Source: Escherichia phage BF15. Taken from it: a DNA stretch of 64,000 bases. The position numbers were made by a program, and so were the translations under genes. The stretch lies in the sequence record MW822007.1. One strand, 5' to 3'. Shown piece by piece: positions 2-51,809 of this stretch (positions are counted from its first letter, which is position 1; each line of letters starts with the position of its first letter). The notes under the pieces are model-generated. The model was not told where the DNA came from, searched no databases, and saw only the letters and a program-made list of their open reading frames with translations.

Positions 2-205
2 AATGGCATGTATGGAAGGAAACATTCCGCTAAATCTATTCAGAAAATTAAAGATAACATGCCAGATAATTCAGGAGCTAATAACCCAGCTGCTAAACCT
101 ATAGAAGTAAATGGTGTTAAGTATAAATGCATGAAAGATGCTTCTAAAGCTACTGGATTATCAATGTACAAACTAAGAATACTTAGAAAAACAGTTAATT
201 TATAA
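2..205 (+). CDS. C-terminal fragment of an ORF continuing off the 5' window edge; homing-endonuclease-like DNA-binding tail (alternatively UvsW C-terminus by synteny)
   Basis: Open frame from position 2 with no upstream stop; GRKHSAKSIQKI resembles a NUMOD3 motif; NGVKYKCMKDASKATGLSMYKLRILRK looks like a C-terminal HTH. Confidence 0.4.
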   Translation, partial: NGMYGRKHSAKSIQKIKDNMPDNSGANNPAAKPIEVNGVKYKCMKDASKATGLSMYKLRILRKTVNL

Positions 206-9051: not shown

Positions 9052-9082
9052 TTTGTGTTCCTCATGTTATGTCAGTAAGTCT

Positions 9083-9112
9083 ACTATAACACAACACGAG
9101 GGACTTGTAAAC
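9083..9112 (-). promoter_or_regulatory. T4-type early promoter (GTTTAC-N18-TATAGT); part of a 53-nt block repeated at 24487..24539
   Basis: Minus strand GTTTACAAGTCCCTCGTGTTGTGTTATAGT. Confidence 0.6.
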
Positions 9113-11169
9113 TACATCTTGAACTTTTTAGACATTCCATTGATGTTAACCAAAGAAGCCAAGATTTGAGAAACTTCGTTTTCCTCTTCTTTTGATTCTT
9201 CTACAAGGAATTGATTAAACCCAGCCATTGGACGAACTTCACCAGTTTCCATTAGATGGTCGCCATCATATACCGATTCTTCTAATTGTTCAGAAGGAGG
9301 AACGATTGTGCCTTCGATTAGATACTTGTTATAAGCAGTTTCTTTCATCATGTACGTACTCACTTTATTAATCTTCAGCAAAATTCCACGTGGTAAAATA
9401 ACTTCAGCTTCTGATGGAAATCCTGATAAATGTCCTGGAACGATAACTTTGATTCGCTCAGCTCCTTTAATTACCATACCCACGCTAGTTTCAGCATCTT
9501 CATTGGCATACGCAGAATGACTACCCATATGCATTAAATCTTCAGCGTCAACAGAACCTTCTCCTTCACCAGAAAATACTGCACCGGAATCATCTAGAGC
9601 CATATAGTTTTTACCATACTCACCGAAGATATTTGGTTTAAGCGATGTGGATACGAAGTTCTTGAAGTAGAACATTTTATTTTCAATATTATGACGTAAA
9701 GTTTTAAAGGTAACTTCTTGTCCACGGTAAAGTGTAGTTCCTGGAGGAAGAACTGATCCTTTGGCAAAGGCAGAATCCATTGTCTCGATGTGTTTAATAG
9801 CTCGTTCCATATATTCTTCACGGGTAGAATCCGGTTTACCTAAAAGGAATGAGTTCATTTCAACATATGAATCTGCACAATAATCTTCAATTACATCAGA
9901 CTCAGCCTGAGTTAATCCTTTTGGAGTTACTTCAGTACTTGCATATTCATACGCTTGAGAAGCAGACTCATTAATCAATTTATAAACGCCATTCATGACA
10001 AATTGAACAATAGCTACCTTTTCATCTGGTGTGGCTTTAGAACCTTTAACTAAATCATTGACAATTTTCTTAATAACATCAAAGCTATTAGAAATATTAA
10101 TGTCAGCAAGATCACTTAAAATTTTATCAGTTTTATAATCAAAAAATTCTTTATTCTTTAAATATTCTTGAGAACCTTGATATGATATATCGCTCTGTAA
10201 CTTGATAGATGGATCACGTAAACGCGCATGAGCCAATGCAATATGATTTCGGAAGCTTTCTAATTCATAATCACTAGATTTAAAACGGGAAGCACTCCTC
10301 ATACCACCGATAGCTCCTTTGCTGAAGTTTGAACCAACCTGAATAACGCCAGAGTTCATTGGTCCTTCTGCTTTATATACCGGAACTTTAGATTCAAACT
10401 CTTGATATTTCTTAGCAGCGAAGCTATCACCCTGAAGTGAAGCATCGACAGTAGAGTATTGAGCTTGTGCTGCTAATCGACGACTAATTTTAGTTTTCTG
10501 AATAACAGCTTGATCCGTGCGCTTATCATTTTCTAAAGCAATAGAAGCAGCAACAGCGACAGCTTTAGGAACAGCATTACCTGTTTTAACGTCTACATAA
10601 ACATCACCAACCTTTGATTCAACTTTTGTGAATAACTCAGTTGAAATAGGAGGTACACCTGGAATGTCTTCTAAATTAGCATTTTTACGGTAAACCATAA
10701 TATATGCGTACTTTTTATCGTAATCCCAGATTTCCTTTAAAAGAACATATCGACCTGCTCCTTTAGTACGTACTAAACGGTCGGCAATAACTTGCATTTG
10801 ACGAGCTGCACCATTTGTTTTACTCTTTAGTACGCGGAATAAGCATGCGTCAATTTTATACTGTTTCATTGTTTGAAGAGCAGTATCAAAAACGGCATTA
10901 ATGACGCCAATTGGATTTCCACCTAAGTTTTTAAGTTTAACTAATGATAGTTTCTCATTAACACCTATCATTACGATATGCATCATTTTATCGCCTGGCT
11001 TAACGTTTTTATTTGTATCACCGCCAGAGGTGTATGTACAAAATCTAAATCCAGGAAGCACACTTTCTTCGCCTGCTTGAATAGCAAAAATTTGAGGTAT
11101 TTTATGCTTAGGATTTAAGTTAACAACCGGCGCCGAAGCGCCGTCAAATAATTCTGTAATAAGTTCCAT
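9112..11169 (-). CDS. Alt-like ADP-ribosyltransferase, tandem paralog (685 aa)
   Basis: Shares the MELITELFD N-terminus, CTYTSGGDTN, MHIV and FYFKNFVSTSL...EAEVILPRG (R-S-E ART motifs) with the adjacent alt gene. Confidence 0.8.
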   Translation of the reverse strand: MELITELFDGASAPVVNLNPKHKIPQIFAIQAGEESVLPGFRFCTYTSGGDTNKNVKPGDKMMHIVMIGVNEKLSLVKLKNLGGNPIGVINAVFDTALQTMKQYKIDACLFRVLKSKTNGAARQMQVIADRLVRTKGAGRYVLLKEIWDYDKKYAYIMVYRKNANLEDIPGVPPISTELFTKVESKVGDVYVDVKTGNAVPKAVAVAASIALENDKRTDQAVIQKTKISRRLAAQAQYSTVDASLQGDSFAAKKYQEFESKVPVYKAEGPMNSGVIQVGSNFSKGAIGGMRSASRFKSSDYELESFRNHIALAHARLRDPSIKLQSDISYQGSQEYLKNKEFFDYKTDKILSDLADINISNSFDVIKKIVNDLVKGSKATPDEKVAIVQFVMNGVYKLINESASQAYEYASTEVTPKGLTQAESDVIEDYCADSYVEMNSFLLGKPDSTREEYMERAIKHIETMDSAFAKGSVLPPGTTLYRGQEVTFKTLRHNIENKMFYFKNFVSTSLKPNIFGEYGKNYMALDDSGAVFSGEGEGSVDAEDLMHMGSHSAYANEDAETSVGMVIKGAERIKVIVPGHLSGFPSEAEVILPRGILLKINKVSTYMMKETAYNKYLIEGTIVPPSEQLEESVYDGDHLMETGEVRPMAGFNQFLVEESKEEENEVSQILASLVNINGMSKKFKM

Positions 11170-11172: not shown

Positions 11173-13266
11173 TTATCCTTGAACGAACTTGTAAGGCATG
11201 TTTGCAATATCTATGCAAGATGCAATAATTCCAAGAGATGATTCTACTTTTTGTTTAACATTTGATGAAACAAATGATGCAAAGTCAACTCTGTCTTCTA
11301 TTTCAATATCACCTGTCATTGCAACTACTTCGCCGGTTTCCATTAGACGGTCACCGTCATAAATTACTGATTCGGTGAGTTCTTCCGTAGTCATAACTTC
11401 AGCTTGAATGAGTTTTGTATTATTAGATGTTGTTCCGTCATTATTAGAAGCATCAGTTATTTTATTAACTTTGACCATCAATCCGCGTGGTAGAATAACT
11501 TCAGCTTCTGTTGCTATTCCGAGACTTCCTGGATATACAACATTAACTTTATGAGCTCCATCAATTGCCCATCCTATTTGAACTTTAACGTATTCAGGAT
11601 TTTCTTTATACGCTCTTATTTCGTTTGGATTAATAGTTATTCCTTCTTCATTTTTATCAACTGTCAATTCATTACGAGCTTCTGGTTCTAAAAGACCAAT
11701 ACCAGCATGTGTAATTCCAAAACGTCCAAAAATGATAGGAGTTAAAGAAGTAGATACAAAATTTCTGAAATAGAACACTTTATTTTTAACTAGTGCTTCG
11801 TATATAGGAGCAGTCATGCTTTGAGCACGATAAACTGTAATGCCTTCTGGTATACGGTCACCATTTTCAAAAGCTGAATCTAAATTATTTATCGCAGATT
11901 CAATTTCTTTTTCACTCATTACATCATATCGTTCTGGATTGTAGCGGCCTAAAAGAAGATTATTGATGTCAGTATATCCTGATCCACAATACTCTCTAAT
12001 GCCGCGCTTTTGCGATGGAGTATATTTAGAACCATCACGGGCAATAGTAATATCAATCATTGGACCTGCACCAATTCCAGAAAAGCTATAAATCATTCGT
12101 TTGAGGAATTTAGTTTTTGCTGCGTTCCAGGAATTTTTAGTTATTTCTTCCCAGACTTCATCTGGCTGCCCTTTACGAGTTTTATTATGTTTATCAAGCC
12201 AATTATCTTTATATTCTTCAAAGAATTTATTAACAGCTGCTGCGTATTTCTCTAAACATTTTATTGAAGTAGTTGGTTCATTTTTGATCGCGTTAAAAAT
12301 TACATCTTTAATTTTTTCAGAAACTTCATCAACCTCACTTTTTGGAAAGAATTTATAGTCATAGTGAAGTTCATCTGCGGTTCCTTCGGCAATGATTTTT
12401 GCTGCCTTAGTTTTAGAAGCTAATGAATTAATTCCAAGCTTCATTTCTTCTGCTTCGGGAATTAAAGGAGCAGTAGCAGGTTTATTGAAATTAGCTGCAG
12501 TAGATTCATACTTCTGGAATAATTCGCTTTCAAATCTAGAAGATTCTAATGATTGACTTTGCGCAATTGCTCTACGGGAAATTTTAACTTTAACAATAAC
12601 AGCTTGGTCAGAACGTTTATCGTTTTCTTGCGCAATAGATGCTGCAATTGCCTCATTTTTAGTTACTTGAGCTCCAGTATCTTTATTGATATAAACATCG
12701 CCGACTTTCGATTCAACTTTAGTAAAGAGCTCGGTACTAATTTCTGGAACTCCTGGAATGTCTTCTAATGATACATTTTTGCGATGTATAAGAATATATG
12801 CATACTTTTTATCGTAATCCCAGAGTTCCTTAAGAAGGACGTATCTGCCACCTGAACGACTACGGATAAGTCTATCAGCAATAACTTGAATTTGTCGAGC
12901 TTGACCAGCAGTTTTAGACTTAAGAATACGAAGCATGCAGGCATCAATTTTATACTGACGCATCGTTTGCATCGCAACAGTAAAAACTGAATTGATATAA
13001 TTAATTGGGCTTGGACCGAGACCTTTTAATTTAGCAATTGAACCTTTAGCAGTTAATGTAAAAGGAACAATATGCATCATTTTATCGCCCATTTTTAAAT
13101 CACGGTTAGTATCACCTCCAGATGTATAGGTACATAAACGAAAGCCTGGTTGTTCAATTGCGTCATCGACATGAACTGAAAAAATTTGTGGTATTTTCTT
13201 CTTTGGATTTAAGTTTGTAATCGGAAGAGTAGTATCTTCGTCAAATAATTCTGTAATAAGTTCCAT
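11173..13266 (-). CDS. alt: Alt ADP-ribosyltransferase (capsid-packaged)
   Basis: 697 aa from second Met; MELITELFDEDTTLPITNLNPKKKIPQIF N-terminus; STS and EAEVILPRG motifs; adjacent to gene 30. Confidence 0.85.
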   Translation of the reverse strand: MELITELFDEDTTLPITNLNPKKKIPQIFSVHVDDAIEQPGFRLCTYTSGGDTNRDLKMGDKMMHIVPFTLTAKGSIAKLKGLGPSPINYINSVFTVAMQTMRQYKIDACMLRILKSKTAGQARQIQVIADRLIRSRSGGRYVLLKELWDYDKKYAYILIHRKNVSLEDIPGVPEISTELFTKVESKVGDVYINKDTGAQVTKNEAIAASIAQENDKRSDQAVIVKVKISRRAIAQSQSLESSRFESELFQKYESTAANFNKPATAPLIPEAEEMKLGINSLASKTKAAKIIAEGTADELHYDYKFFPKSEVDEVSEKIKDVIFNAIKNEPTTSIKCLEKYAAAVNKFFEEYKDNWLDKHNKTRKGQPDEVWEEITKNSWNAAKTKFLKRMIYSFSGIGAGPMIDITIARDGSKYTPSQKRGIREYCGSGYTDINNLLLGRYNPERYDVMSEKEIESAINNLDSAFENGDRIPEGITVYRAQSMTAPIYEALVKNKVFYFRNFVSTSLTPIIFGRFGITHAGIGLLEPEARNELTVDKNEEGITINPNEIRAYKENPEYVKVQIGWAIDGAHKVNVVYPGSLGIATEAEVILPRGLMVKVNKITDASNNDGTTSNNTKLIQAEVMTTEELTESVIYDGDRLMETGEVVAMTGDIEIEDRVDFASFVSSNVKQKVESSLGIIASCIDIANMPYKFVQG

Positions 13267-13289
13267 CATATCCTCTCTAGTGTTTATTC

Positions 13290-13297
13290 TATTTATA
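13290..13297 (-). promoter_or_regulatory. Late promoter (TATAAATA) upstream of alt
   Basis: Minus strand TATAAATA about 25 nt upstream of the alt start. Confidence 0.5.
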
Positions 13298-13302
13298 AAA
13301 TT

Positions 13303-13322
13303 AAAGGCCCGAAGGCCTTTAA
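13303..13322 (-). terminator. Tetraloop hairpin (GGCC-CGAA-GGCC) with T-rich tail
   Basis: aaaggcccgaaggccttt; minus strand hairpin followed by TTTAATTTTAT. Confidence 0.45.
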
Positions 13323-13507
13323 TAATCTAGTGGTAAGAGAGTACGATATATTTCAAACTTTGGCCCTTTTTCATAGGCATCAAATGTTTCTGTAAATTTA
13401 TTATAAGCATATGCATCTACAAATTCGAGAACGATTTGTGATACAGAAGTAGAAACATCTCCACCTTCTTTTTGAGCCACGACAATTGTTTCTAAGTAAG
13501 CTTTCAT
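13319..13507 (-). CDS. Hypothetical protein, 62 aa
   Basis: Track ORF; start overlaps the ligase stop. Confidence 0.5.
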   Translation of the reverse strand: MKAYLETIVVAQKEGGDVSTSVSQIVLEFVDAYAYNKFTETFDAYEKGPKFEIYRTLLPLDY

Positions 13508-14964
13508 AAACCAGTTACCTCATGAAAATCACCAAATACATCCTCAAATGTATTAGCTTTAGTTTTATCTTCACGTAAACGAATCGCAATCGGAAGAAAT
13601 AATTTAACGTAATCAGTGCGGCCATCAGATTTTAACCAACCATTGCATTCGCACTCTAGAATTTTTCCAATATAATAATTTTGGTTTTCCATAATGCGAG
13701 TACGGTCAAGTTCATGTGATTTTACGCCAGCTTTATCTTTTAAGCCTGAACCTGCATTTACTTTAATTTTTCCACACTCTGATTCAAGAATAAATCCACC
13801 CGCTTTAGTAGGGTCTTTACGGTGAGGATAAATTCCTACAATTTTTAAATCAACATCAATTACTTCTTTAAATTTATAAAGATTTTTTGAACGAGCATTT
13901 TCCCACAATCCATCGATATTTTTGAGAATAATACCTTCAAGACCTTGGTCAATATACTTTTTATAAATTACCTTAGCTTCATCTAGGTTATTTACTACCT
14001 GGTTTTCAATTAAAATTACTTTATCATATCCTGATGTCATTTGTTCTAGTTTAGAAAAACGTACATCATATTTTAAACGAAACGCCGGAAGACCGTATAT
14101 TTCTACCAACGGAACATAATCCCAGACCTGAAACTTCATGCATTTGGCTTCTTTTTCTGAAATAGTTCCCTTTAAAGATTTATTGGCGATTCCATTAGAA
14201 GCAGTACGAGATTCAGCTACTTCGGCAAACTCTTTAGCTTTACTATTTTCAGGAGCATCAAAAAGAAAATCTAGGCCTTCTGGTTCCTTTTCAACTTGCT
14301 CATGGTATACCAATTCGCCATCGATTAACACGCCTTCTGGATGAATCTGGCGGGCTTCAGCAGTCATTTTGATTAACTCTTCCTTAAGAAGATCTAATCC
14401 TAGGTATTCATTGCCAGCTCGTGATAAAAGACGAACATCATCTAATTCATCACCTCTGACTTCAGCAAAACACCGAGCTCCATCTGCTTTTAACTGCGCA
14501 AAAGCTGGAAACTTGATATTCTTACTAATGCCTTTTTCATCATAAGAACTTGCCAGCATTTGAGGTTGTTCAGGAATTAAACCTGGCCAAACTTTGTTTG
14601 CAATAGATACTGAAGCACCGCATTCAAGGTCTCGCATCATAACTCGACGCAAAACTTCAACATCATCCTTTTTACCATCGGTGATATATCCAGTTAATTC
14701 CTCAATTGCTGCATTGCCAGTTAATTTCCGAGTAGCTAACGTAAATTCAATAAAGTCAAGCATATCGGTAATAGTCAGCATTCCAAAACTCTGGGTAGCA
14801 ATACCAGGTTTAGGCCATTTCTTGATATAATACTGTAACCCACGAGAATAAGTCAGACGATATACTCGTTTAAGCAATTCATTATTTTTATTCTTTTCAA
14901 GAATTGCTTGCTTCTGTTTAGTTGATCCAATAGATGCTATTTCATTCAGAATTTTAAGAATCAT
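13504..14964 (-). CDS. 30: ATP-dependent DNA ligase gp30
   Basis: 486 aa; KADGAR adenylation motif; matches recalled T4 ligase. Confidence 0.95.
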   Translation of the reverse strand: MILKILNEIASIGSTKQKQAILEKNKNNELLKRVYRLTYSRGLQYYIKKWPKPGIATQSFGMLTITDMLDFIEFTLATRKLTGNAAIEELTGYITDGKKDDVEVLRRVMMRDLECGASVSIANKVWPGLIPEQPQMLASSYDEKGISKNIKFPAFAQLKADGARCFAEVRGDELDDVRLLSRAGNEYLGLDLLKEELIKMTAEARQIHPEGVLIDGELVYHEQVEKEPEGLDFLFDAPENSKAKEFAEVAESRTASNGIANKSLKGTISEKEAKCMKFQVWDYVPLVEIYGLPAFRLKYDVRFSKLEQMTSGYDKVILIENQVVNNLDEAKVIYKKYIDQGLEGIILKNIDGLWENARSKNLYKFKEVIDVDLKIVGIYPHRKDPTKAGGFILESECGKIKVNAGSGLKDKAGVKSHELDRTRIMENQNYYIGKILECECNGWLKSDGRTDYVKLFLPIAIRLREDKTKANTFEDVFGDFHEVTGL

Positions 14965-15230
14965 TGTTCATCCTTCAGAGTTTGATTTACATCTCTATTA
15001 TAAATCAATTCATCATTAAGCTCAGGCAAAGACTTATGATATGTCGTTCTAACTTTATTTCCTTGCATCCAGTGCTTGACGTAAATGAAACCTTGCTCTA
15101 CACATTTTTTAAAAATTCGTTCGTCTTTTTGAGCACGGAATTCTGGATTGCATCTAAAAAATTGATTTACGTGACCGTAATCACGTGTAGTATTACCTTC
15201 ATTTTCATAAATAGTATGAACAACAAACAT
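14961..15230 (-). CDS. Hypothetical protein (30.x cluster)
   Basis: 89-aa track ORF, translationally coupled. Confidence 0.55.
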   Translation of the reverse strand: MFVVHTIYENEGNTTRDYGHVNQFFRCNPEFRAQKDERIFKKCVEQGFIYVKHWMQGNKVRTTYHKSLPELNDELIYNRDVNQTLKDEQ

Positions 15231-16069
15231 TAGAATGCTCCTTGAAAAATATTATCACCACTAGTAGGTCTATTATACAAATACTCTATGCCACCAGGTT
15301 TAATATAGTTCCATGTCTGAAACGGATGTGTCTGATATGGATGATATAGATGATTATAAGGATTAAATCCAGGCGTTCTCCAGGTAGTGTTCCAAGGAAA
15401 AGAATCGTTTTTAACCATCTTCTCAATTAAATCTTTTATAGCTTTTTCACTATCAAAACTTTCTTTATTTTCCTTCGGCGAAAAAAGCTTATTTTCTACA
15501 TCATTCCATGTATAAACTCGCTGCGCAGTTTTTGGAATATTATCACGCTCCCCTCGAGCCATCCAATAAACAGGAACATTTAATATTTCACTCGCATGAT
15601 CGCAGTGATGAGCGAGATCGTCAATATAACAAATTACGTTATATTTCTCTTTTGCCTTTTTGAACAGCTCTTCTTTTGAAGAATCATGACCACACATCAT
15701 TACTTCCGAGAAAGCACCAGGAAAAAGAGCATTCAAATTAAATTGACGATTCAATAAAGCGTCAATAGAATCACCCAATGCTGTAACAGCAACAAAATTA
15801 TAATCTTCTTTTAATTTGTTAATTACACACAGGGCATCTTTATACGGAGACAAGTAACGAATAAAATCTGAACGATTGTATTTTTCAATTAACTTGACGC
15901 CAAGTTCTTCGTCACAATTAAAGAGTTTACCTGGAGAAATAAATTTCTCATCTTGGATCATTTTTAAAATATGTTCTAACGGAAGATTATATTTCTGAGC
16001 AAAATAAGGAAGGCCTGATTGCCAGCTTAAACATACTCCATCAATATCAGTCAAAATAGTTGGTTTCAT
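15230..16069 (-). CDS. HAD-superfamily hydrolase-like protein (possible nucleotidase)
   Basis: 279 aa; N-terminal LTDIDGV (DxDG) motif and later CYIDDLAHH acidic motif. Confidence 0.5.
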   Translation of the reverse strand: MKPTILTDIDGVCLSWQSGLPYFAQKYNLPLEHILKMIQDEKFISPGKLFNCDEELGVKLIEKYNRSDFIRYLSPYKDALCVINKLKEDYNFVAVTALGDSIDALLNRQFNLNALFPGAFSEVMMCGHDSSKEELFKKAKEKYNVICYIDDLAHHCDHASEILNVPVYWMARGERDNIPKTAQRVYTWNDVENKLFSPKENKESFDSEKAIKDLIEKMVKNDSFPWNTTWRTPGFNPYNHLYHPYQTHPFQTWNYIKPGGIEYLYNRPTSGDNIFQGAF

Positions 16070-16530
16070 AGAGAGTCTCTTAATAGGTTTAACACATCAA
16101 TAAATTCAGCTTCGGTTAGTATTGTATCATCTTTTGTTAGACCACTAGCCATGCTGTGCTTCAAAACTTTTCCTTTCGAGGCTTGTAATGCATCACGAAA
16201 ACCCCTGTTTTGGATCGCTGCTTCAAAATATGCATTTGTGTATAATTCTTTCCATGCTTCGGAATATCTTGAAAACGGAGTTCCAAGCCAGAACAACGTG
16301 CCACGGTCCTGAGCTCTTGCATAAGCTCGTCCAGCTTTTTGCGCGTCCAACCCGGACATCCCAAATATACGTCTTTGCTGTTCAACATTTTTCACCTTAC
16401 ATCCTTGGAGGAATCCTTCTAGACCTCCAAATTGAATACCATCCATAACGAAAGGCCATTGGGCGAAATTGCTTAATGCACATGATGGCCATTTAAAATT
16501 GCTTCTAATCTCTAACTCAGACATTTTCAA
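16066..16530 (-). CDS. Hypothetical protein
   Basis: 154-aa track ORF in operon context. Confidence 0.55.
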   Translation of the reverse strand: MKMSELEIRSNFKWPSCALSNFAQWPFVMDGIQFGGLEGFLQGCKVKNVEQQRRIFGMSGLDAQKAGRAYARAQDRGTLFWLGTPFSRYSEAWKELYTNAYFEAAIQNRGFRDALQASKGKVLKHSMASGLTKDDTILTEAEFIDVLNLLRDSL

Positions 16531-16723
16531 TACTTATAATTTCAACATCAGCCCAATGACCATAGCAAGGAAGACGAAATTCAACTGGCCAGTTAGGGTC
16601 CTTTTCTAATATAATAGACTGAACTTGTGACTCTTCATATTCATCGGTATACGGACCTTTATACGTTACTTTATATGTGACCTTAATGTACTGAATTCCA
16701 AAAATCTTATTAATTATATTCAT
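16517..16723 (-). CDS. Hypothetical protein
   Basis: 68-aa track ORF. Confidence 0.45.
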   Translation of the reverse strand: MNIINKIFGIQYIKVTYKVTYKGPYTDEYEESQVQSIILEKDPNWPVEFRLPCYGHWADVEIISIENV

Positions 16724-16917
16724 ACTAATTCCTTTAATCCGTAAATAGGAGATAATTCATCACCCATACGAAGGTCTTCATTTCCATCTACCCAGGAAAC
16801 AATATAAGCCTCTTTTATTTGAATACCACTCCATTTAAATGGAGATAGAACCTTAGAAATTAATCCAGGTATACCAACTCCCTTTAATTCAACAGTTTGA
16901 CCTAAAAAGAATTTCAT
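16720..16917 (-). CDS. Hypothetical protein
   Basis: 65-aa track ORF, ATGA-coupled. Confidence 0.45.
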   Translation of the reverse strand: MKFFLGQTVELKGVGIPGLISKVLSPFKWSGIQIKEAYIVSWVDGNEDLRMGDELSPIYGLKELV

Positions 16918-17255
16918 TAGAACCTCATCTGAAAACCGTGCGATTTAACATTACCACCACCAATGTCAGAAATATTAATTTCACGCGCAATTGAAGGGTC
17001 AATGTCAATTTCACGATTGAGTTTAACGATAGCTAAAGTATCGCGCCCATTTACACTACGGAACTCTAAGGGGCAGACTACATTAACGTAGTTTTTAATC
17101 GATTCACTGGTAGGTTGCAAATGAGCAGGAAGGCCTTTAGGCGCCTTTGAGAAAACCACTTCACAGAAATTTTTACGGGTATCAAAATAAGTAGTCATAA
17201 ACATAGTATTTTCCTCAGTAAGGGGCCGAAGCCCCTGTTTTATTTTAAATATCAA
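16917..17255 (-). CDS. Hypothetical protein
   Basis: 112-aa track ORF. Confidence 0.5.
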   Translation of the reverse strand: MIFKIKQGLRPLTEENTMFMTTYFDTRKNFCEVVFSKAPKGLPAHLQPTSESIKNYVNVVCPLEFRSVNGRDTLAIVKLNREIDIDPSIAREINISDIGGGNVKSHGFQMRF

Positions 17256-17610
17256 ATTCGTTAAGAACTACATCAAAGATTGCTTTAAGATGCTCAGGTT
17301 TAGCTCTGTTACTCAGAATATGACGAATCCAAGTTTTAACCAGAAGCTTACGATTGACGCCATTCCAGCAAGGATGAGTACCTAAATCACGTTGACGGAA
17401 ATCATCATCTAATGCGATTTTAAAAGAAGAACCTTCTTTCGTGATTGAAACCGTGATGCCATTTTCAAATCGCATATAAACGTAGTTAGGAGTCATATAC
17501 TGTTCAATTTCACATACTGATCCATTTTGATGTTTCCAAAGGCAGATAGTATCAATAGAACCTGCAATACCGTTAGAAACATATTTACGTTCAAAGTTAA
17601 TGTAGTTCAT
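17245..17610 (-). CDS. Hypothetical protein
   Basis: 121-aa track ORF preceded by GGAGAATAAAAATG. Confidence 0.55.
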   Translation of the reverse strand: MNYINFERKYVSNGIAGSIDTICLWKHQNGSVCEIEQYMTPNYVYMRFENGITVSITKEGSSFKIALDDDFRQRDLGTHPCWNGVNRKLLVKTWIRHILSNRAKPEHLKAIFDVVLNEFDI

Positions 17611-17647
17611 TTTTATTCTCCGAGATATTTAATTGCGGTACAGGTAT

Positions 17648-17676
17648 ATAATATCATATCCTGTACCAAAGTAAAC
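17648..17676 (-). promoter_or_regulatory. T4-type early promoter
   Basis: Minus strand GTTTAC-N17-TATTAT. Confidence 0.55.
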
Positions 17677-17678
17677 AA

Positions 17679-18011
17679 TTATTTTACTACTTTCCAATGT
17701 TGCATGTCAAGTTTACCAACTTTTTTCATCTTCTCAATTAAGCGTTCGGCACGCTGGCGAGCTGTAACATAATACCATTCACCTAATTCATTTTGTTCAA
17801 TTTTTCCAACGATTACTGTATTCAATTCATAAATCCAACCAGTAAAGAAATTATGAACTTGGATTGTAAAGGTGAAATCTGTTCCCATACCTTCTGTTGT
17901 TTCTACTTCAATAATATCACCTTCAACTGCCATTAAGAACCACATAGTTTCGTTATATTCACCATTGAAGCATTTAGTTTTAACTGTGGCGTTCAGATTA
18001 ATCGTTTTCAT
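17679..18011 (-). CDS. Hypothetical protein
   Basis: 110-aa track ORF preceded by GGAGAATAAAATG. Confidence 0.55.
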   Translation of the reverse strand: MKTINLNATVKTKCFNGEYNETMWFLMAVEGDIIEVETTEGMGTDFTFTIQVHNFFTGWIYELNTVIVGKIEQNELGEWYYVTARQRAERLIEKMKKVGKLDMQHWKVVK

Positions 18012-18038
18012 TTTATTCTCCTTTGTTTGTGTAAGATA

Positions 18039-18068
18039 ATACTATCACAAAGGAACTATACTGTAAAC
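18039..18068 (-). promoter_or_regulatory. T4-type early promoter
   Basis: Minus strand GTTTACAGTATAGTTCCTTTGTGATAGTAT. Confidence 0.55.
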
Positions 18069-18087
18069 AACTTTATGCAATCTTTGG

Positions 18088-18118
18088 AAAATAAAAAAGG
18101 ACTCCCGAAGGAGTCCTC
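18088..18118 (-). terminator. Rho-independent terminator (minus strand)
   Basis: GGACTCC-CGAA-GGAGTCC hairpin then TTTTTTATTTT on the minus strand. Confidence 0.6.
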
Positions 18119-18121
18119 AAC

Positions 18122-18340
18122 TTATGCTTTCTGCTTACCAAAACGAGAAGCATCATCTCGAAGAACCGCACGTGCTCGGCGCATGATCTTCTCAACAGTT
18201 TGATTGATACGAGAGTTCGACCCACGCTTGTAACCAGCGCGTTTAGAATCACCAACTTTCTTTTCAACTGCTTTCTTTGCTTTAGCTTGTTTTGCCATTA
18301 TAAATTCTCTTTTAAATGAAAATGCAGGACTTATTGGCAT
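18122..18340 (-). CDS. Small basic hypothetical protein (start may be the internal Met near 18298)
   Basis: Track ORF; Lys/Arg-rich MAKQAKAKKAVEKK... Confidence 0.5.
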   Translation of the reverse strand: MPISPAFSFKREFIMAKQAKAKKAVEKKVGDSKRAGYKRGSNSRINQTVEKIMRRARAVLRDDASRFGKQKA

Positions 18341-18694
18341 TGCCTGCGAAAGCCCTCAAGGGGTACTTAGGTTTTGAATATTTACCGACAGGATAACCAT
18401 AAACCCGTCATCATACCTTATAGCTCTTATCTGTTGCACACCGTTAGCTTAAAGGTTCCGGGTTCGATTTCTCGAGGATAAGATATATACTGATGGATAT
18501 ATAGGCCTTGAGGCGTACTCCCAATTGGCCATCACCTCGGGGTAGCATGCACTTGCCGCTATAAGAATAACATTCAAGAGGTACACCATAAAACTGCCGG
18601 GGTCTTAAAACTATAATGATTCGCAAATCATTAATCAGACAGTTCGATGGCTCCTCGATTTTAGCTCACACTAAGGCAGTGAATCTCCAATAAA

Positions 18695-18943
18695 TTACTT
18701 CAGTGTTACCACAAAGTGACGAACTGCTTTTCGTGCAGCAGAAGCCAGAGGCTTAGCATACTTAAGTTCATCTTTTTCCTGAAGCTCAGCAGCTAATGCA
18801 GTTTGAGCAGGATTCAGATGTTTGAAATAACGCAGGATTTCAAGAGCTTCGGCTTCAACATCAATAGATGCGCCATAGTTTTCGTGACCATTATTCCATG
18901 CGTTTCGTTGCAGTTCAAGAGCGTGTTGTAATTGTTTAATCAT
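18695..18943 (-). CDS. rIII: rIII lysis inhibition accessory protein
   Basis: 82 aa as in T4; adjacent to gene 31. Confidence 0.8.
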   Translation of the reverse strand: MIKQLQHALELQRNAWNNGHENYGASIDVEAEALEILRYFKHLNPAQTALAAELQEKDELKYAKPLASAARKAVRHFVVTLK

Positions 18944-21177: not shown

Positions 21178-21206
21178 TTCAATTTCCTCATTTGTTTGGT
21201 AGAGCT

Positions 21207-21236
21207 ATAATATCACAACTCTACCGTAAAGTAAAC
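21207..21236 (-). promoter_or_regulatory. T4-type early promoter
   Basis: Minus strand GTTTAC-N18-TATTAT. Confidence 0.55.
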
Positions 21237-21907: not shown

Positions 21908-23107
<1,200 letters not shown>

Positions 23108-23111
<4 letters not shown>

Positions 23112-24478: not shown

Positions 24479-24506
24479 CATAAAGTCCTCATGTTATGTC
24501 AGTAAG

Positions 24507-24539
24507 TCTACTATAACACAACACGAGGGACTTGTAAAC
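24507..24539 (-). promoter_or_regulatory. T4-type early promoter upstream of alc; identical copy of the block at 9060..9112
   Basis: 53 nt identical to 9060..9112, covering the -35, -10 and 5' UTR. Confidence 0.6.
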
Positions 24540-26157: not shown

Positions 26158-27336
26158 TTAAAAATATTTTTTAAAACTCATCATAACTTTATCATCAACA
26201 TCATTATCAATCTGTGCTACAAGGTAAGATGATAGTTCTACTTCTTGCGGCGCGGATTGAACATTATCAGAATTAAGGTATTCACGAATCCAAGGATATG
26301 GATGTTTAACCGGAGCATCGGTAATTGGGCATGGAAGACCGCACTGTTTCATACGAGATACAGTTAAGTAATCAATAAAGCTCCACATGCTATTTGTATT
26401 TAATCCAGGAACATCACCATCTTTAAATAAATGAACTGCCCAATCTTTTTCTTGGCGGTTAACTTCCATGAAAATATCAACTGCTTCTTGTTCACACTCT
26501 TGGGCAATTTTAACCCATTCATCACCATCAGTGCCAAGCTGAAGTTGACGAATAATATATTGGGTGCCTTTAAGGTGAAGCTGCTCATCACGAGCAATGA
26601 ACTTCATAATCTTGGCATTACCTTCCATGATTTCCATGTTCTTATGGAAGTTAAAGGTACATGCGAAAGATACATAAAAACGAATAGCTTCCAATGCGTT
26701 GATTACATGAAGGCAAAGATAAAGAGATTTCATTAGTGCTCGTTTAGCTTCGGCTTCTTGTTTAATAGCTCGATTTAAACGAAAATCAGCATCAGGAGAT
26801 TCTTTAGCTAGTTCTACAAATTCTTTAGCATTTTCCCATTCACGGGTCTTCTTAAGAACATCATCGTAATAGCGACCAATGGACTCAGCGCGTTTCATAA
26901 TATCTTCATCTAATACAATCTCATCAAATACCTTTGATGGGTCAGTATAAAGATTTCGCATGATATGAGTATATGAACGACTGTGAATAGTTTCACTAAA
27001 AGTCCATGTAGCAACCCATGTATCAAGGCTTGGGTCTGAAATTAATGACATAAGTACTGCAGACGGTGCACGACCCTGAATGCTATCTAGAAGTGATTGA
27101 TACTTCAGGTTATTAGTAAAAATATCTTGCTGATACTGAGGAAGCTTGTTAAATTGTGCAGCATCCATCATCAAGTTTACTTCTTCAGGGCGCCAGAAAA
27201 ATGATAATTGCTTTTCGGTTAAATCTTCAAAAACTTTATGGCGTTGAATATCATAACGCGCAATACCAAGACCTGAACCGAAGAACATAGGTTCTTTTAA
27301 AACATCAACTGGATTTGTATTAAAAACTGTGCTCAT
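26158..27336 (-). CDS. nrdB: Ribonucleotide reductase small subunit, uninterrupted
   Basis: 392 aa contiguous ORF; no intron or intron-encoded ORF. Confidence 0.95.
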   Translation of the reverse strand: MSTVFNTNPVDVLKEPMFFGSGLGIARYDIQRHKVFEDLTEKQLSFFWRPEEVNLMMDAAQFNKLPQYQQDIFTNNLKYQSLLDSIQGRAPSAVLMSLISDPSLDTWVATWTFSETIHSRSYTHIMRNLYTDPSKVFDEIVLDEDIMKRAESIGRYYDDVLKKTREWENAKEFVELAKESPDADFRLNRAIKQEAEAKRALMKSLYLCLHVINALEAIRFYVSFACTFNFHKNMEIMEGNAKIMKFIARDEQLHLKGTQYIIRQLQLGTDGDEWVKIAQECEQEAVDIFMEVNRQEKDWAVHLFKDGDVPGLNTNSMWSFIDYLTVSRMKQCGLPCPITDAPVKHPYPWIREYLNSDNVQSAPQEVELSSYLVAQIDNDVDDKVMMSFKKYF

Positions 27337-30209: not shown

Positions 30210-31070
30210 TTACACCGCCATTTTTCCTTTAATAGGAGGGTGTGATTCGTAACCTTTAAGAACGAAATCTTTAGGCCTGAGTTTAAGAACATATTCCAAT
30301 TGTTCTTTAGTAGAAAGATGGCGGAATTTATAAGGCAATCCGCCTATTACCAGTTCACAAAGCTCTTTAGGTTCACGACGTAAAATTTCTTTACATTGTT
30401 CCACGTGATTCATATAGATATGAGTATTACCGCCAGAAAATATCAAATCTCCAGGAATAAGATTACACATCTTAGCTACAATATGAACTAATGCAGCATA
30501 TGATGCAATATTAAATGGAAGACCGAGGAAAACATCTACCGAACGTTGATACCACTGCAAATCCAAATAGCCATTACGCACATTAAACTGATAGAACATA
30601 TGACAAGGCGGTAATGCCATATATTTAAGTTCAGCTGGATTCCACGCAGAAACAATTTGACGCCTATCATTTGGTAGTTTTTTAATACGATCAACAACTT
30701 CTACAATTTGGTCTACACCGCCAAAATCACGCCACTGTTTTCCATAAATTGGACCAAGTTCACCACTATGATATCCTAAATCTTTTGCTTGATTTTCGTA
30801 ATTTTCATCCCAGACTGTTTTGCCTTGAATTAATGAATCATGTTGAATTAATCGCAAATCATTGACATTTGTGCTTCCTGATAAAAACCATATTAGCTCA
30901 GCGATGCAAGCTTTCCAAGCGAGCTTCTTAGTCGTTACTGCAGGAAAACCTTTAGTTAAATCCCAGCGTAATTTAGTACCGAACAAAGCAATTGTTCCTG
31001 TGCCTGTTCGGTCATCGGTTTCATAGCCGTTTTCAAAAATGTCTTTAATTAAATCTTGGTATTGTTTCAT
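30210..31070 (-). CDS. td: Thymidylate synthase, uninterrupted
   Basis: 286 aa contiguous; PPCHMFYQF active-site region; no intron. Confidence 0.95.
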   Translation of the reverse strand: MKQYQDLIKDIFENGYETDDRTGTGTIALFGTKLRWDLTKGFPAVTTKKLAWKACIAELIWFLSGSTNVNDLRLIQHDSLIQGKTVWDENYENQAKDLGYHSGELGPIYGKQWRDFGGVDQIVEVVDRIKKLPNDRRQIVSAWNPAELKYMALPPCHMFYQFNVRNGYLDLQWYQRSVDVFLGLPFNIASYAALVHIVAKMCNLIPGDLIFSGGNTHIYMNHVEQCKEILRREPKELCELVIGGLPYKFRHLSTKEQLEYVLKLRPKDFVLKGYESHPPIKGKMAV

Positions 31071-31115: not shown

Positions 31116-31475
31116 TCAATACGGTTTAGCATCAAATTTTCTTTCGATTTCAGGAGTGAAATATAATTCTTTACCACGCTTGGAAAAGCGACCAATAATA
31201 TGATAATTATTCTCATCAAACGTGATATTGCCAATATCCATAGCTTTCAACCAAATATCGATATTTCTATCCAGCTTTATATCAAAATTCCAATACGGAG
31301 AACTATTACCGAAAATACTGCAAGCGGATTCAGTGAAACAACTGCTATAAATCTTGTCTTTAGGAACTACTAATTGATAGACACCTTTAATAAACTGAGG
31401 ACCCTGCCATTTTGGTTGTTTCGCGTCTTTTTCCAATAGAATAGGGTAATAATTAAAGCTCATATTTTCCGCCAC
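31116..31475 (-). CDS. Hypothetical protein inserted between frd and td
   Basis: 119-aa track ORF with no function I can assign. Confidence 0.55.
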   Translation of the reverse strand: MAENMSFNYYPILLEKDAKQPKWQGPQFIKGVYQLVVPKDKIYSSCFTESACSIFGNSSPYWNFDIKLDRNIDIWLKAMDIGNITFDENNYHIIGRFSKRGKELYFTPEIERKFDAKPY

Positions 31476-32907: not shown

Positions 32908-32932
32908 TTTATTCTCCTTAGTTGATAGGGTA

Positions 32933-32962
32933 ATAATATCACACTACTACCCTACTGTAAAC
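32933..32962 (-). promoter_or_regulatory. T4-type early promoter
   Basis: Minus strand GTTTACAGTAGGGTAGTAGTGTGATATTAT. Confidence 0.5.
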
Positions 32963-33641: not shown

Positions 33642-33671
33642 ATAGTACCACAAAGCTTTATGCTTGTAAAC
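33642..33671 (-). promoter_or_regulatory. T4-type early promoter downstream of gene 32
   Basis: Minus strand GTTTACAAGCATAAAGCTTTGTGGTACTAT. Confidence 0.6.
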
Positions 33672-33693
33672 AGTTTTGTGAAAAAATTTTGAA

Positions 33694-33722
33694 ATAAAAA
33701 AGGGGACCTCTAGGGTCCCCAA
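33694..33722 (-). terminator. Rho-independent terminator after gene 32
   Basis: GGGGACC-CTAGA-GGTCCCC hairpin then TTTTTTATTT on the minus strand. Confidence 0.7.
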
Positions 33723-34651: not shown

Positions 34652-34718
34652 TTTTATTTCCTTTTTAATTTAATTAACAGTTGGTGCTATGACGATGTAT
34701 GACCTCATAGCTGGTCAG
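34652..34718 (-). promoter_or_regulatory. Gene 32 translational operator: pseudoknot plus AU-rich unstructured gp32 binding region
   Basis: Minus strand GCUGACCAGCUAUGAGGUCAUACAUCGUCAUAGCAC can form an H-type pseudoknot, then UUAAUUAAAUUAAAAAGGAAAUAAAAAUG. Confidence 0.6.
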
Positions 34719-34750
34719 TGAGATAATTATAATCTATTTATAATAAGCAA

Positions 34751-36941: not shown

Positions 36942-36971
36942 ATTATATACCATCCGAATCTTAAAGTAAAC
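36942..36971 (-). promoter_or_regulatory. T4-type early promoter for rnh
   Basis: Minus strand GTTTACTTTAAGATTCGGATGGTATATAAT. Confidence 0.55.
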
Positions 36972-45700: not shown

Positions 45701-45980
45701 CGCTCAAGAGAAATCTAAACTCTTAGGCGGCTATACTTATCTGCTTAAAAACCCTGTTACAGACGAAGTTAAACCGTCTGCAGGTTTAATTGCTCAGGAA
45801 GTTCAAGAAGTATTACCTGAACTTGTTTCTGAAGATAAAGAGACCGGCTTACTTCGTTTAAACTATAACGGTATTATCGGTTTAAATACTGCTACTATCA
45901 ACGAGCATACTGACGAAATCAAGGAATTGAAATCTGAAATTGCTGAGTTGAAAGCATTAATTAAATCATTGATAAAATAA
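42741..45980 (+). CDS. 37: Long tail fibre distal subunit gp37 with C-terminal intramolecular chaperone domain
   Basis: 1079 aa; the C-terminal ~106 aa from SDIRCKSEIK...GLIAQEVQEVLPELV... plus terminal coiled coil resemble S74-type auto-cleaving chaperone domains. Confidence 0.9.
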   Translation: MATLKQIQFKRSKTAGARPAASVLAEGELAINLKDRVLFTKDDQGNIIDLGFAKGGSIDGNVIHTGNYNQTGDYTLNGTFTQTGNFNLTGIARVTRDIIAAGQIMTEGGELITKSSGTAHVRFFDNNSRERGIIYAPANDGLTTQVLNIRVQDYAAGDESTYAFSGSGLFTSPEVSAWKSISSPQILTDKVITNGKKTGDYDISSLANNNSDTDKNYLRIVRTDPAAAMLHEICENNGISWYSGSTPTDYMLSFAYSGGFQAGHSIAVGMESGPITYSALGKGSIALGDNDTGLKWHQDGYFFTVSNGTKTFLSGPAETTSLRKMVMGYSVNGTDLTTPPTENYALATVVTYHDNNAYGDGQTLLGYYQGGNYHHYFRGKGTTNINTAGGLLVTPGNIDVIGGSVNIDGRNNSSTLMFRGNTTGYSSVDNMDIKVWGNTFVDPSEGTRKNIMEISDATSWMSYIQRLTTGEVEMNVNGSFESSGVTAGNRGVHTTGEISSGAVNALRIWNADYGAIFRRSEGSLHIIPTAYGEGKHGDIGPLRPFSMALDTGKVTIPDLQSSYNTFAANGYIKFTGHGAGAGGYDIQYVQAAPVFQEIDDDAISKYYPIVKQKFLNGKAVWSLGTEINSGTFVLHHIKEDGSQGHTSRFNQDGTVNFPDNVQVGGGEATIARNGNIWSDIWKTFTSAGDTTNIRDAIATRVSKEGDTMTGTLWINKDAAGIVLNPPLASDSSFIRSDTAGVNNWYIGKGGADNGLGFYSYVTQGGVYITNNGEISLSPQGQGTFNFNRDRLHINGTQWTAHQGGGWGNQWNQEAPVFVDFGNVGNDSYYPIIKGKSGITNEGYVSGVDFGMRRITNTWAQGIIRVGNQENGYDPQAVYEFHHNGTFYAPSLLKSSRVSAGGGDPAWGSPCIVLGDNDTGFLWEADGIFNAYANGQGVFSFRAGLAQTFGNVNFHCNAGMYVRDNIDVNDVYIRSDIRCKSEIKLIKNAQEKSKLLGGYTYLLKNPVTDEVKPSAGLIAQEVQEVLPELVSEDKETGLLRLNYNGIIGLNTATINEHTDEIKELKSEIAELKALIKSLIK

Positions 45981-46010
45981 TAAAAGGGCCTTCGGGCCCT
46001 GGAGGTTTAT

Positions 46011-46790
46011 ATGGCAGTAGTAGGAATCCCTGGTTGGATTGGGACTTCAGCCGTCGCTGAAACAGGCCAACGTTGGATGACAGCAGCTTCTAGAGAATTG
46101 CGTCTTGGTAACCCATCTTGGATGTCCCAATTCGCAGGCCGCTCAAGAGAAATTATTCACACACTTGGAGCAGACCATAACTTCAATGGTCAATGGTTCC
46201 GAGATAGATGTTTTGAGGCAGGTAGTGCACCTATAGTGTTTAATATTACAGGTGATTTAGTATCATATTCTAAAGATGTTCCTTTATTTTTCATGTATGG
46301 AGATACACCGAATGAATATGTTCAGTTGAATATACACGGCGTAACGATGTATGGACGTGGCGGTAATGGCGGTAGCAATAGTCCTGGCTCAGCTGGAGGT
46401 CATTGTATTCAAAACGATATTGGTGGGAGACTAAGAATTAATAATGGTGGAGCTATTGCAGGCGGCGGTGGCGGCGGTGGCGGCGGTAACAGGGGTAGAC
46501 TAGTATTTGGTGGCGGCGGTGGTCGTCCATTTGGTGCTGGTGGGTCTTCCTCTCATATGAGTGCTGGTGCAACCGCTGGCACCATTTACGCTCCGGGTGC
46601 AGGATCTGTCGGTGAGGGGTCTCTTAGTGCATATACAGGCGGGTCTGGTGGTGAAGTAGGTTCCGCGGGAGGTAGATGTAATACTCACGGTGCCGGTACA
46701 GAATATAACGGCGGAGCTGCTGGTTATGCTGTTATAGGGTCTGCTCCAACGTGGATAAATGTTGGAGCAATATATGGTCCAAGAGTATAA
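46011..46790 (+). CDS. 38: Receptor-recognising adhesin gp38 (T2-type, glycine-rich)
   Basis: 259 aa; multiple poly-Gly blocks ([21 protein letters not shown]) alternating with variable segments. Confidence 0.85.
46461..46487 (+). repeat. Coding trinucleotide repeat (GGCGGCGGT)x3 inside gene 38
   Basis: Direct tandem repeat encoding a Gly9 run. Confidence 0.7.
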
Positions 46791-47750: not shown

Positions 47751-47782
47751 TAACTATACCACTCAATTAGTTGACTTTATTA

Positions 47783-47812
47783 TAATATCATCAGACACTT
47801 GATTTGTAAACT
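47783..47812 (-). promoter_or_regulatory. T4-type early promoter for asiA
   Basis: Minus strand GTTTACAAATCAAGTGTCTGATGATATTAT. Confidence 0.6.
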
Positions 47813-51805: not shown

Positions 51806-51809
51806 AAAT

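Follow-up and report, generated by a model that had tools for sequence, protein, structure and literature searches.

In the genome of Escherichia phage BF15, a stem-loop and an early promoter stand together between genes 30.9 and 30.8, an arrangement that an earlier note read as one of a recurrent set of mobile regulatory cassettes bounding variable open reading frames (ORFs). The locus raises the question of whether such modules mark the places where genes are gained and lost, and whether the modules themselves move. The window, which is the whole 64,000-nucleotide stretch analyzed (record MW822007.1), belongs to a Tequatrovirus (T4-like) genome: one query of 6 kb and two of 25 kb from it match hundreds of these genomes at 94–98% identity. 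T4 proteins placed by tblastn form a colinear map that runs through uvsY, alt, 30, 30.1–30.9, rIII, 31, cd, pseT, alc and nrdAB, continues with td, frd, 32, rnh, the tail-fibre genes 34–38 (plus strand), asiA, arn and motA, and ends with 52, ndd, denB, rIIB, rIIA, 39 and motB. The conventional genome start falls at window position ~55,720 and, taken with this map, therefore places rIIA-39-motB, not ndd, at the right end of the window. No tRNAs were found in the window, and Rfam gave no match for it at the gathering score and none for 18280–18720 at E ≤ 1.

The junction between 30.9 and 30.8

Positions 18039–18118 on the minus strand lie between the stop codon of 30.9 (TAA, 18122–18124) and the ATG of 30.8 (18009–18011), and they coincide exactly with the hairpin plus T-run (18088–18118) and the promoter (18039–18068) that had been pointed out there. 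Read 5′ to 3′, the 30.9 stop is followed by the stem-loop, a U-run, 19 nt of A/T-rich sequence, GTTTAC, an 18-nt spacer ending in TGn, TAGTAT, about 7 nt to the predicted transcription start, AAGGAG and ATG. The predicted intrinsic terminator, GAGGACUCC-UUCG-GGAGUCCUU (18097–18118, minus strand), starts 4 nt past the 30.9 stop and was identified by consensus scan and by RNAfold (ΔG −15.0 kcal/mol). Its 9-bp stem carries a UUCG loop and runs directly into the U-run TTTTTTATTTT (T-run TTTTATTTT, 18088–18096), and several public records, made by independent annotators, have a ‘terminator’ at this stem-loop. The A/T-rich stretch (18069–18087) then leads to the −35 element GTTTAC (18063–18068), the hexamer known at −36 to −31 of T4 early promoters (Nolan et al. 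2006, PMC1524935), and to an extended −10, TGTGA TAGTAT (18039–18049, hexamer 18039–18044), found by motif scans. As GTTTAC-N18-TAGTAT with TGn, co-oriented with 30.8 and with 28 nt between its −10 and the 30.8 ATG, this promoter has the form expected of a T4 early promoter. T4 early promoters have been described as ‘uber’ UP/−35/TGn/−10 promoters with extra consensus regions (Hinton 2010, PMC2988021); in consensus, spacing, strand and position before early genes, the promoter part of the module does not differ from them. The Rho-independent terminator would stop or attenuate early transcripts arriving from rIII and 30.9, and the sigma-70 promoter of the T4 early type, with its A/T-rich upstream region, GTTTAC, TGn and −10, would restart transcription for 30.8 and the genes downstream.

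Contigs of a divergent lineage in IMG/VR, whose gp30.8 is ~80% identical, have AUGGGACUC-UUCG-GAGUCCCAU plus a U-run at the same junction, together with the promoter GTGTAC-N17-TACTAT. All nine terminator pairs are kept in that lineage (100% of cells), five of them changed on both sides, against just 33–61% of cells paired in slid control windows. This one lineage contrast shows, at the level of sequence comparison, a predicted terminator conserved in structure rather than in sequence. The 96-nt module occurs at 500 places in 498 records, all of them at the 30.9/30.8 junction; 497 are full-length and nearly all are at least 95% identical. Its spacer is found solely before 30.8, or before 30.7 in T2. 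The module is thus single-copy and positionally fixed, with none of the dispersed copies by which a mobile element in the strict sense is recognized. We are confident that the feature is a fixed intercistronic terminator/early-promoter junction, a short dispersed repeat and not a transposing unit.

Promoter early stem-loops (PeSLs) were defined in RB49 and phi1, with five possible stem positions that include one between −35 and −10 and one over the −10 (Arbiol et al. 2010, PMC2839356). They generate mini-circles in those phages (PMC2839356) and were later extended to T4 and PST with the consensus TTTACW-N17-TAYWAT, stems of the type AGNA-loop-TCNT and the ndd.4/.5 swap as an example (Comeau et al. 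2014, PMC4122927). The link drawn earlier between early promoters with terminators and PeSLs is correct, as the focal module (TTTACA-N17-TAGTAT, stem AGGA...TCCT) fits the PMC4122927 consensus with one departure, a G for Y in the −10. It holds all PeSL parts, namely an early promoter, an A/T-rich upstream region, a stem-loop, a Shine-Dalgarno (SD) sequence and an ATG. The focal module is a textbook junction of a T4 terminator and early promoter, belongs to the PeSL class as described and is in this sense already known; the literature covers T4 early promoters and CUUCGG terminators as well as PeSLs, including their T4/PST form.

Early promoters and hairpins in the window

The motif GTTTAC-N16–19-TANNAT has 13 matches in the window, all on the minus strand, where 0.99 are expected and a maximum of 6 was seen in 100 shuffles; the spacing is N18 in 12 and N17 in one. 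The earlier count of at least 12 minus-strand GTTTAC promoters is borne out by these 13 exact matches against about one expected. A stricter scan adds two strong promoters that had been missed, at 9112 (before alt.-3) and 24539 (before alc), both with −10 TATAGT, and a profile scan adds 62316, also missed, which has a degenerate −35 and is the sole new member from a position-weight matrix that is overfitted to its 13 sites. The 15 exact family members score at least 11 of 13 and each has a gene start 40–75 nt downstream, and all matches are on the early-gene strand. Only −35/−10 scores of 11 or more were retained; a score of 10 is background, with 23 minus-strand and 7 plus-strand matches against 4–16 in shuffles. 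An antisense match at 44346 inside gene 37 was taken as chance. Judged by their sequences, the credible early promoters in the window number 16. Their likeness would stem mainly from being read by the same host RNA polymerase, which would keep functional positions conserved and leave the spacers mostly unrelated between loci and orthologous between genomes. Promoter and terminator activity is predicted here from consensus, conservation and the T4 literature.

Besides the focal promoter, the family (all on the minus strand) begins with the promoters of alt.-3 (9083–9112) and alc (24510–24539), which lie in two copies of a 54-nt promoter-plus-5′UTR cassette (9059–9112 and 24486–24539). The motif-defined promoter of 30.7 (17648–17676) lies within a hairpin (17637–17667; ΔG −16.1, z −4.65) whose arms are invariant in the divergent lineage, and that of cd.2 (21207–21236), noted in the T4 record itself as Pe133295 at the cd.3/cd.2 junction, lies within another (21198–21226; ΔG −16.3, z −5.5). 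The frd.1 promoter (32933–32962, by motif) has the same arrangement (hairpin 32926–32954; ΔG −15.5) and is adjoined by three distinct indels. On the downstream side of gene 32, before frd.3, a terminator (33692–33720) and an early promoter (33642–33671) together occupy 33642–33720, and a terminator 3′ of gene 32 is a conserved feature of T4-likes (PMC1524935). A second such pair (50247–50326), with terminator 50296–50326 and promoter 50247–50276, marks the motA.1/motA junction. Motif scans further identify the promoters of rnh (36942–36971), asiA (47782–47811, within the 3′ end of asiA.1), ndd.4 (53381–53410) and rIIA.1 (58149–58178). Downstream of denB, a promoter found by its motif (53874–53903) is placed to drive a variable ORF of 68 aa (53633–53839), which in other genomes has 87 aa or is an 8-aa remnant. 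At the 3′ end of the split gene 39, a GTTTAC-N18-TACAAT match of uncertain function (59563–59592) lies within the 39/60 insertion, 28 nt from its edge. The member with the degenerate −35 (ATATAC; 62287–62316) is in the motB/cef interval within a hairpin with 13-bp arms (62268–62310; ΔG −19.7, z −6.9). The motB promoter (62875–62904, by motif) is also within a hairpin (62862–62896; ΔG −17.4), and a T2 deletion of motB.1/motB.2 stops 10 nt upstream of it.

In the earlier account many of these promoters had GTGGTACTATACAACTATCAACTAC downstream; within three mismatches we find it at two (50256 and 53883), with partial sharing at 33671, 32962, 53410 and 62316. The 5′UTR motif CTATCAACTA is common to five promoters and is family-specific conservation beyond the T4 early consensus.

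Five tetraloop hairpins had been singled out as partners of such promoters, those at 18118, 33720, 50326, 13303 and 61087. All are present and stable, at −15.0, −14.3, −18.6, −9.9 and −7.5 kcal/mol, respectively. The pairing with an early promoter holds for the first three, where a canonical terminator (18097–18118, 33702–33720 and 50305–50326) has a GTTTAC promoter within ~30 nt; the last two precede promoters of other types. An adjacent canonical terminator is thus found at only 3 of the 16 early promoters. Before alt (13290–13320, minus strand), a UUCG hairpin (13303–13320) is followed by the late-promoter sequence TATAAATA (13290–13297), which is not an early-promoter module; a terminator in front of alt is a feature that T4-likes conserve (PMC1524935). 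The other UUCG hairpin (61090–61107) overlaps a MotA box, TAGCTTTA (61083–61090), that is followed by N12 and TATAAT (61065–61070), which makes the whole (61065–61107, minus strand) a predicted middle promoter of gene 39 under the MotA-box consensus given in PMC1524935. In T4, P39 starts at 5349 and gene 39 at 5328, and the TAGCTTTA-N12-TATAAT site of the window is placed correspondingly. The earlier note cited this hairpin as an example and named ndd.x among the variable clusters; the hairpin is located at the 39.1/39 junction, not among ndd.x, which is at 52.2–53.6 kb. No GTTTAC promoter occurs inside arn.1–arn.4; those at 47811 and 50276 only flank the cluster.

Hairpins with C(UUCG)G tetraloops were reportedly described from T4 intergenic regions by Tuerk and colleagues in 1988. 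The terminators of the window resemble them in having cUUCGg loops on G+C stems, with U-runs, directly past stop codons. Unlike these, the UUCG hairpins at 17221–17236, 52111–52126, 54767–54784 and 55734–55748 have no U-run on the gene strand and, because of this, are probably not terminators for early transcripts.

A different kind of stem surrounds the −10 itself. At the focal promoter, a 5′ arm TCCTTTGT (18047–18054, minus strand) and a 3′ arm ACAAAGGA (18019–18026, minus strand) bracket the −10 as an 8-bp perfect complement (p = 0.007 versus shuffles), and the 3′ arm overlaps the 30.8 Shine-Dalgarno AAGGAG (18018–18023). The predicted fold of 30.8 read-through RNA, at −18.9 kcal/mol and z −3.95, pairs both the SD and the AUG, and RNA from the predicted +1 of 30.8 is unstructured by prediction. 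The inverted repeat would then pair with the SD in read-through RNA only, and this would bias 30.8 translation towards transcripts from its own promoter. In T4 genes e, soc, 49 and I-TevI, the ribosome-binding site is sequestered in read-through RNA and is accessible in transcripts whose promoter is within the hairpin. The focal junction is similar: a hairpin encloses its promoter, the 3′ arm of that hairpin covers the SD, and only RNA from this promoter is predicted to be open. It differs in that its promoter is early and its effect is predicted, whereas those promoters are late and their effect is experimentally shown, and in that the divergent lineage does not retain the SD-sequestering 30.8 hairpin (z −0.44).

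Across the family, perfect inverted repeats of 7–13 bp surround the −10 in 6 of the 16 promoters (combined p = 1.3 × 10⁻⁴). The six −10-centred hairpins have −15 to −20 kcal/mol and z of −3.2 to −6.9 and no U-run, and are therefore not intrinsic terminators; for the five other than the focal one, −15.5 to −19.7 kcal/mol was matched by none of 200 shuffles. Two further promoters have a 7-bp spacer hairpin and the rest are unstructured, so that the PeSL stem types per 16 promoters are 3 upstream terminators, 6 −10-centred hairpins and 2 spacer hairpins. Since transcription from the promoter itself is predicted to begin in the 3′ arm, the −10 hairpin would be confined to read-through RNA or to a DNA cruciform. 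In NR1 and AndreasVesalius, a different frd.1 promoter allele forms an equivalent hairpin with other arms (−14.7, z −4.4), and two unrelated alleles that each form one point to selection. We tentatively suggest that about a third of Tequatrovirus early promoters (17676, 18068, 21236, 32962, 62316 and 62904) may be built into hairpins at the −10 that selection keeps for read-through sensing or as recombination-prone cruciforms. If so, the hairpins could distinguish read-through from locally started RNA through SD occlusion, processing or 3′-end stabilization or, alternatively, could make the sites recombination-prone as cruciform targets. Stems overlapping the −10 are described for the PeSLs of RB49/phi1, which the six promoters here resemble in this respect, and are not described for the T4/PST type (PMC2839356, PMC4122927).

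Exchange of promoter cores between loci

We compared the syntenic ~65 kb of T4, PEC04, L14, ESh29, NR1, AndreasVesalius, PST, ES12, T2, TH09 and BCH953P4. Sorted by downstream gene across genomes, promoter spacers are stable and orthologous at all loci but frd.3, which has three unrelated spacers: one is that of the denB/ndd promoter, and another is that of an insert before motA in L14, so that identical 18-nt spacers occur at non-orthologous loci. The insert, shared by L14 and ES12, places 321 nt between the motA.1 terminator and motA and consists of a promoter core and a 75-aa ORF. Direct repeats of 36 nt, consisting of −10 plus 5′UTR, flank it, and the crossover is within the promoter. The identity of its 72-nt module is 97% with the frd.3 module of T4 and the window, which is at another locus, and only 85% with the frd.3 module of L14 itself. 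A transposed frd.3 gene was rejected as the source of the insert, the match being limited to the promoter module.

Promoters of this sub-family share AAAATTTTTTCACAAAAC upstream and TGTGGTACTATACAACTATC downstream, which is enough homology for core conversion. With ~20–26 nt of identical flanks, its members (frd.3, motA, denB/ndd and motB/cef) do exchange cores between loci, in line with the PeSL proposal. Over 54 nt, the promoters of alt.-3 and alc are identical to each other in 10 of 10 sequences (the window and nine genomes, without TH09 and BCH953P4). A T>A substitution private to the window is found at one position in the two copies alike, and in T2 the copies also have a variant in common, which hints at gene conversion over 15 kb. 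An IMG/VR scan for the 54-nt cassette returned 9 stretches. Module exchange between loci is therefore seen in one sub-family only, possibly also in the alt.-3/alc pair, and not at the focal element. The mobile-cassette reading of the earlier note holds for the core swaps in the frd.3/motA/denB/ndd sub-family but not for the focal module, fixed as a single copy in the 498 records.

Endpoints of gene gain and loss

Endpoints of indels and replacements spanning 50 nt or more were clustered from blastn alignments of the 11 genomes chained to the window. The statistics exclude the tail-fibre mosaic, the events due to introns, homing endonucleases and gene 39/60, and two chaining artefacts (PST 11179–18568, from alt paralogues, and TH09 51393–53615, from record ends). 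With a promoter module taken to run from 45 nt before the −35 to the end of the start codon, the two early regions contain 49 endpoints: 15 in 1.9 kb of promoter modules (7.8/kb), 10 in 2.1 kb of other non-coding DNA (4.8/kb) and 24 in 40.6 kb of coding DNA (0.6/kb). The proposal that modules coincide with synteny breakpoints is supported in that they hold 15 of the 49, an enrichment over the whole early regions of p = 1.3 × 10⁻⁹. What limits the mobile-cassette reading is that their density is not significantly above that of other non-coding DNA (15 versus 10 endpoints in 11 genomes, p = 0.32), a comparison of low power with which a true 1.5–2-fold excess is compatible. Within −20 to +100 nt, 10 of 15 promoter-bearing gene starts have an endpoint versus 17 of 71 others (odds ratio 6.4, Fisher p = 0.004). 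Ten of the module endpoints are between the −10 and the ATG, three in the upstream A/T region and two between −35 and −10, and terminator stems hold none of the 49 endpoints in the 11 genomes. The co-location of modules with variable ORFs is real, but largely as any non-coding junction shows it.

Most junctions join ATG to ATG or SD to SD through microhomologies of 3–16 nt. ATG-to-ATG joins at promoter-less junctions are about as many as module events, and most inserted ORFs bring no promoter. In 8 of the 11 genomes, a 518-nt ORF insertion is joined ATG to ATG just 3′ of the cd.2 promoter. The junction overlap is ‘ATG’ for ORF213 downstream of this promoter, AAATGAAAA for the extra ORF in the pseT.1/pseT interval, TAAATGAAA for the td/frd ORF and ATAATATG for the frd-proximal ORFs. 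The ORF before 39.1 is likewise joined codon-precisely at the translation start, and the junction of a tiny ORF past the frd.1 promoter is an SD repeat. T2, which lacks 30.8, has its crossover in a 16-nt repeat, GGAGAATAAAATGAA, common to the 30.8 and 30.7 leaders. The loss has one endpoint 32 nt downstream of the focal −10 and leaves the focal terminator-promoter intact, fused to 30.7 and now placed to drive it. As a further sign that some modules exchange, the leaders of 30.8 and 30.7 do not differ over ~38 nt in the divergent lineage. In an earlier nine-genome count, 39 of 75 raw endpoints were no farther than 30 nt from a start codon (11.7% expected). From this count and the codon-precise joins, ribosome-binding regions are at least as important a junction class as promoters. 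Gene-sized insertions, deletions and replacements often end in modules because the modules are short repeats in indel-tolerant DNA. They would lie in the sole DNA that tolerates such events, which would proceed by short-homology recombination, mostly in the 5′UTR/ribosome-binding segment and likewise at start codons that have no promoter.

An explanation by survival only, with illegitimate indels striking anywhere, survivors ending in non-coding junctions that leave the adjacent genes expressed and modules having no recombination activity, seems doubtful as a full account. It agrees with the 0.6 endpoints/kb in coding DNA versus 4.8–7.8/kb in both non-coding kinds, and with codon-precise ATG-to-ATG junctions that overlap by merely 3–16 nt. 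The same SD/ATG microhomologies are, however, repeats able to guide recombination, and the identical 72-nt module, the 18-nt spacers at non-orthologous loci and the 36-nt repeats in L14 need homology-driven exchange.

Somewhat less probable, and in our judgment unlikely, is the full PeSL model, in which the modules, the focal one included, are mobile cassettes whose homologous recombination, with excision and integration of mini-circles, does most to shuffle the ORFs of the 30.x, cd.x, arn.x and ndd.x clusters. The model is published for RB49/phi1 and T4/PST, and the excess of variable promoter-bearing gene starts (10/15 versus 17/71) is what it predicts. The motA insert of L14 and ES12, as an ORF between two promoters with 36-nt junction repeats, the movement of cores among frd.3, motA and denB/ndd, the substitution specific to the window in both alt.-3/alc copies and the deletion in T2 of 30.8, which sits between two modules, all speak for it. 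The endpoint densities do not (p = 0.32), nor do the endpoint positions, with none in terminator stems and just 2 of 49 inside −35 to −10. Modules are on both sides of only about 2 of ~23 variable loci, the inserted ORFs are mostly promoter-less and joined ATG to ATG, and the T2 deletion of 30.8 used an SD repeat instead of a promoter or stem-loop. The fixed single copy of the focal module and the adjacent terminators at just 3 of 16 promoters also count against it. What the window shares with the described PeSLs is a repeated family in hyperplastic early regions, made of an early promoter, an A/T-rich region, a stem-loop and the SD/ATG of a small ORF, and a hot spot at ndd/denB that is the figure-6 example of the PeSL work. 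It differs in the rarity of upstream terminators, in crossovers mostly at SD/ATG and not in the A/T-rich region or stem, in a module breakpoint density not significantly higher than in other intergenic DNA and in the immobility of the focal module.

Homing endonucleases in place of promoters as the drivers of small-ORF presence and absence are highly improbable: classic endonuclease/intron events in nrdB, nrdA, td and 59/32 explain endpoints at 26660, 27336–92, 28275–307, 30521 and 34714–50, the AndreasVesalius record labels three variable ORFs ‘putative homing endonuclease’ and the insertion splitting gene 39/60 (58513–59620) contains a mobA remnant, but the classic events were excluded ahead of the endpoint statistics and an endonuclease origin of the promoter-adjacent variable ORFs was rejected, as 0 of 10 have a GIY-YIG, HNH or other endonuclease domain in Pfam or PHROGs.

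Short repeats in indel-tolerant DNA are thus the reading we prefer for the modules. For the PeSL idea, the 11 genomes provide a quantitative check, which is the useful outcome: modules are rich in breakpoints, though not significantly more so than other intergenic DNA. The claim that modular shuffling is driven by regulatory cassettes is tempered by this result, which suggests translation-initiation regions as an equally important ‘linker’ class. The morons of lambdoid phages (Hendrix et al. 2000, discussed in PMC2839356) are similar in being extra ORFs with their own promoter, and sometimes a terminator, between resident genes, a form that the insert with the 75-aa ORF in L14 and ES12 has. 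Unlike morons, the ORFs here are co-oriented and most inserts are without a promoter. Extra variable ORFs in the window also include one of 100 aa at 22809–23111 (pseT.1/pseT) and one of 115 aa at 31116–31463 (frd/td).

The alt.-3/alc promoter pair and the second alt-like gene

The minus-strand early promoters of alt.-3 (9059-9112) and alc (24486-24539) share an identical 54-nt stretch of promoter and 5'UTR, with the identity extending through the spacer, and each of the ten sequences in this comparison (the window and nine genomes) has the pair at both loci. A T>A change private to the window is present in each copy at the corresponding position; T2 likewise has a variant common to its alt.-3 and alc copies. 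The pattern suggests gene conversion across 15 kb. Next to alt lies a second alt-like ADP-ribosyltransferase gene (9112-11169, 685 aa), of which T4 retains only remnants (alt.-1/alt.-2), and PST carries one copy. In T4 the breakpoint precedes the alt.-3 promoter by 19 nt.

Hairpins at promoters and between genes

Besides the promoter of the focal terminator-promoter module, five early promoters sit in hairpins centered on the -10 element (17637-17667, 21198-21226, 32926-32954, 62268-62310 and 62862-62896), with folding energies of about -15.5 to -20 kcal/mol and without a U-run. The frd.1 promoter in NR1 and AndreasVesalius is a different allele, in which an equivalent hairpin is formed from other arm sequences. 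Four intergenic tetraloop hairpins, reading UUCG (17221-17236, 52111-52126 and 54767-54784) or UUGC (55734-55748) on the gene strand, have a T-run on the plus strand only, opposing the early genes. These four may terminate antisense or late read-through transcription, or may stabilize RNA.

Variable ORFs and intergenic segments

Downstream of the degenerate promoter at the motB|cef junction (62316), the window holds a short remnant (62168-62243) of a 270-nt ORF from which roughly 200 nt have been deleted internally; T2, NR1, AndreasVesalius and TH09 have the intact ORF. The ORF after the denB-proximal promoter (53633-53839 in the window) occurs in three states: a 68-aa form, an unrelated 87-aa form, and an 8-aa remnant of the latter, MKIAEIEL, which is found in T4 (locus L002, near 27000). 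In the divergent lineage of IMG/VR contigs (L033-L037), an identical stretch of ~38 nt (GTACCAAATAATACGAAAACAAACTGGAGAATAAAATGAA; ~1160-1206 and ~1575-1612) is shared by the 30.8 and 30.7 5'UTRs and makes a direct repeat on either side of 30.8. A 400-nt non-coding gap (18299-18697) separates rIII from 30.9; it contains no convincing ORF, no tRNA and no Rfam match at E<=1, and its segment 18415-18692 is replaced or missing in most compared genomes.

Tail fiber, introns and homing genes

The distal tail-fiber gene 37 and gene 38 (42741-46790) are of the T2/T6 adhesin type and not of the T4 type, as T4 gp38 has no tblastn match in the window. T4 has introns in nrdB and td as well as nrdB.1/mobE and segG, and the window lacks every one of them (26158-27336, 30210-31070 and 34714-34750). 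Topoisomerase gene 39/60, fused in nine of the 11 compared genomes, is split T4-style in the window (58514-59619), with 60.1 and a mobA remnant. Within the insertion that splits the gene, 28 nt from its edge, there is a GTTTAC-N18-TACAAT match.
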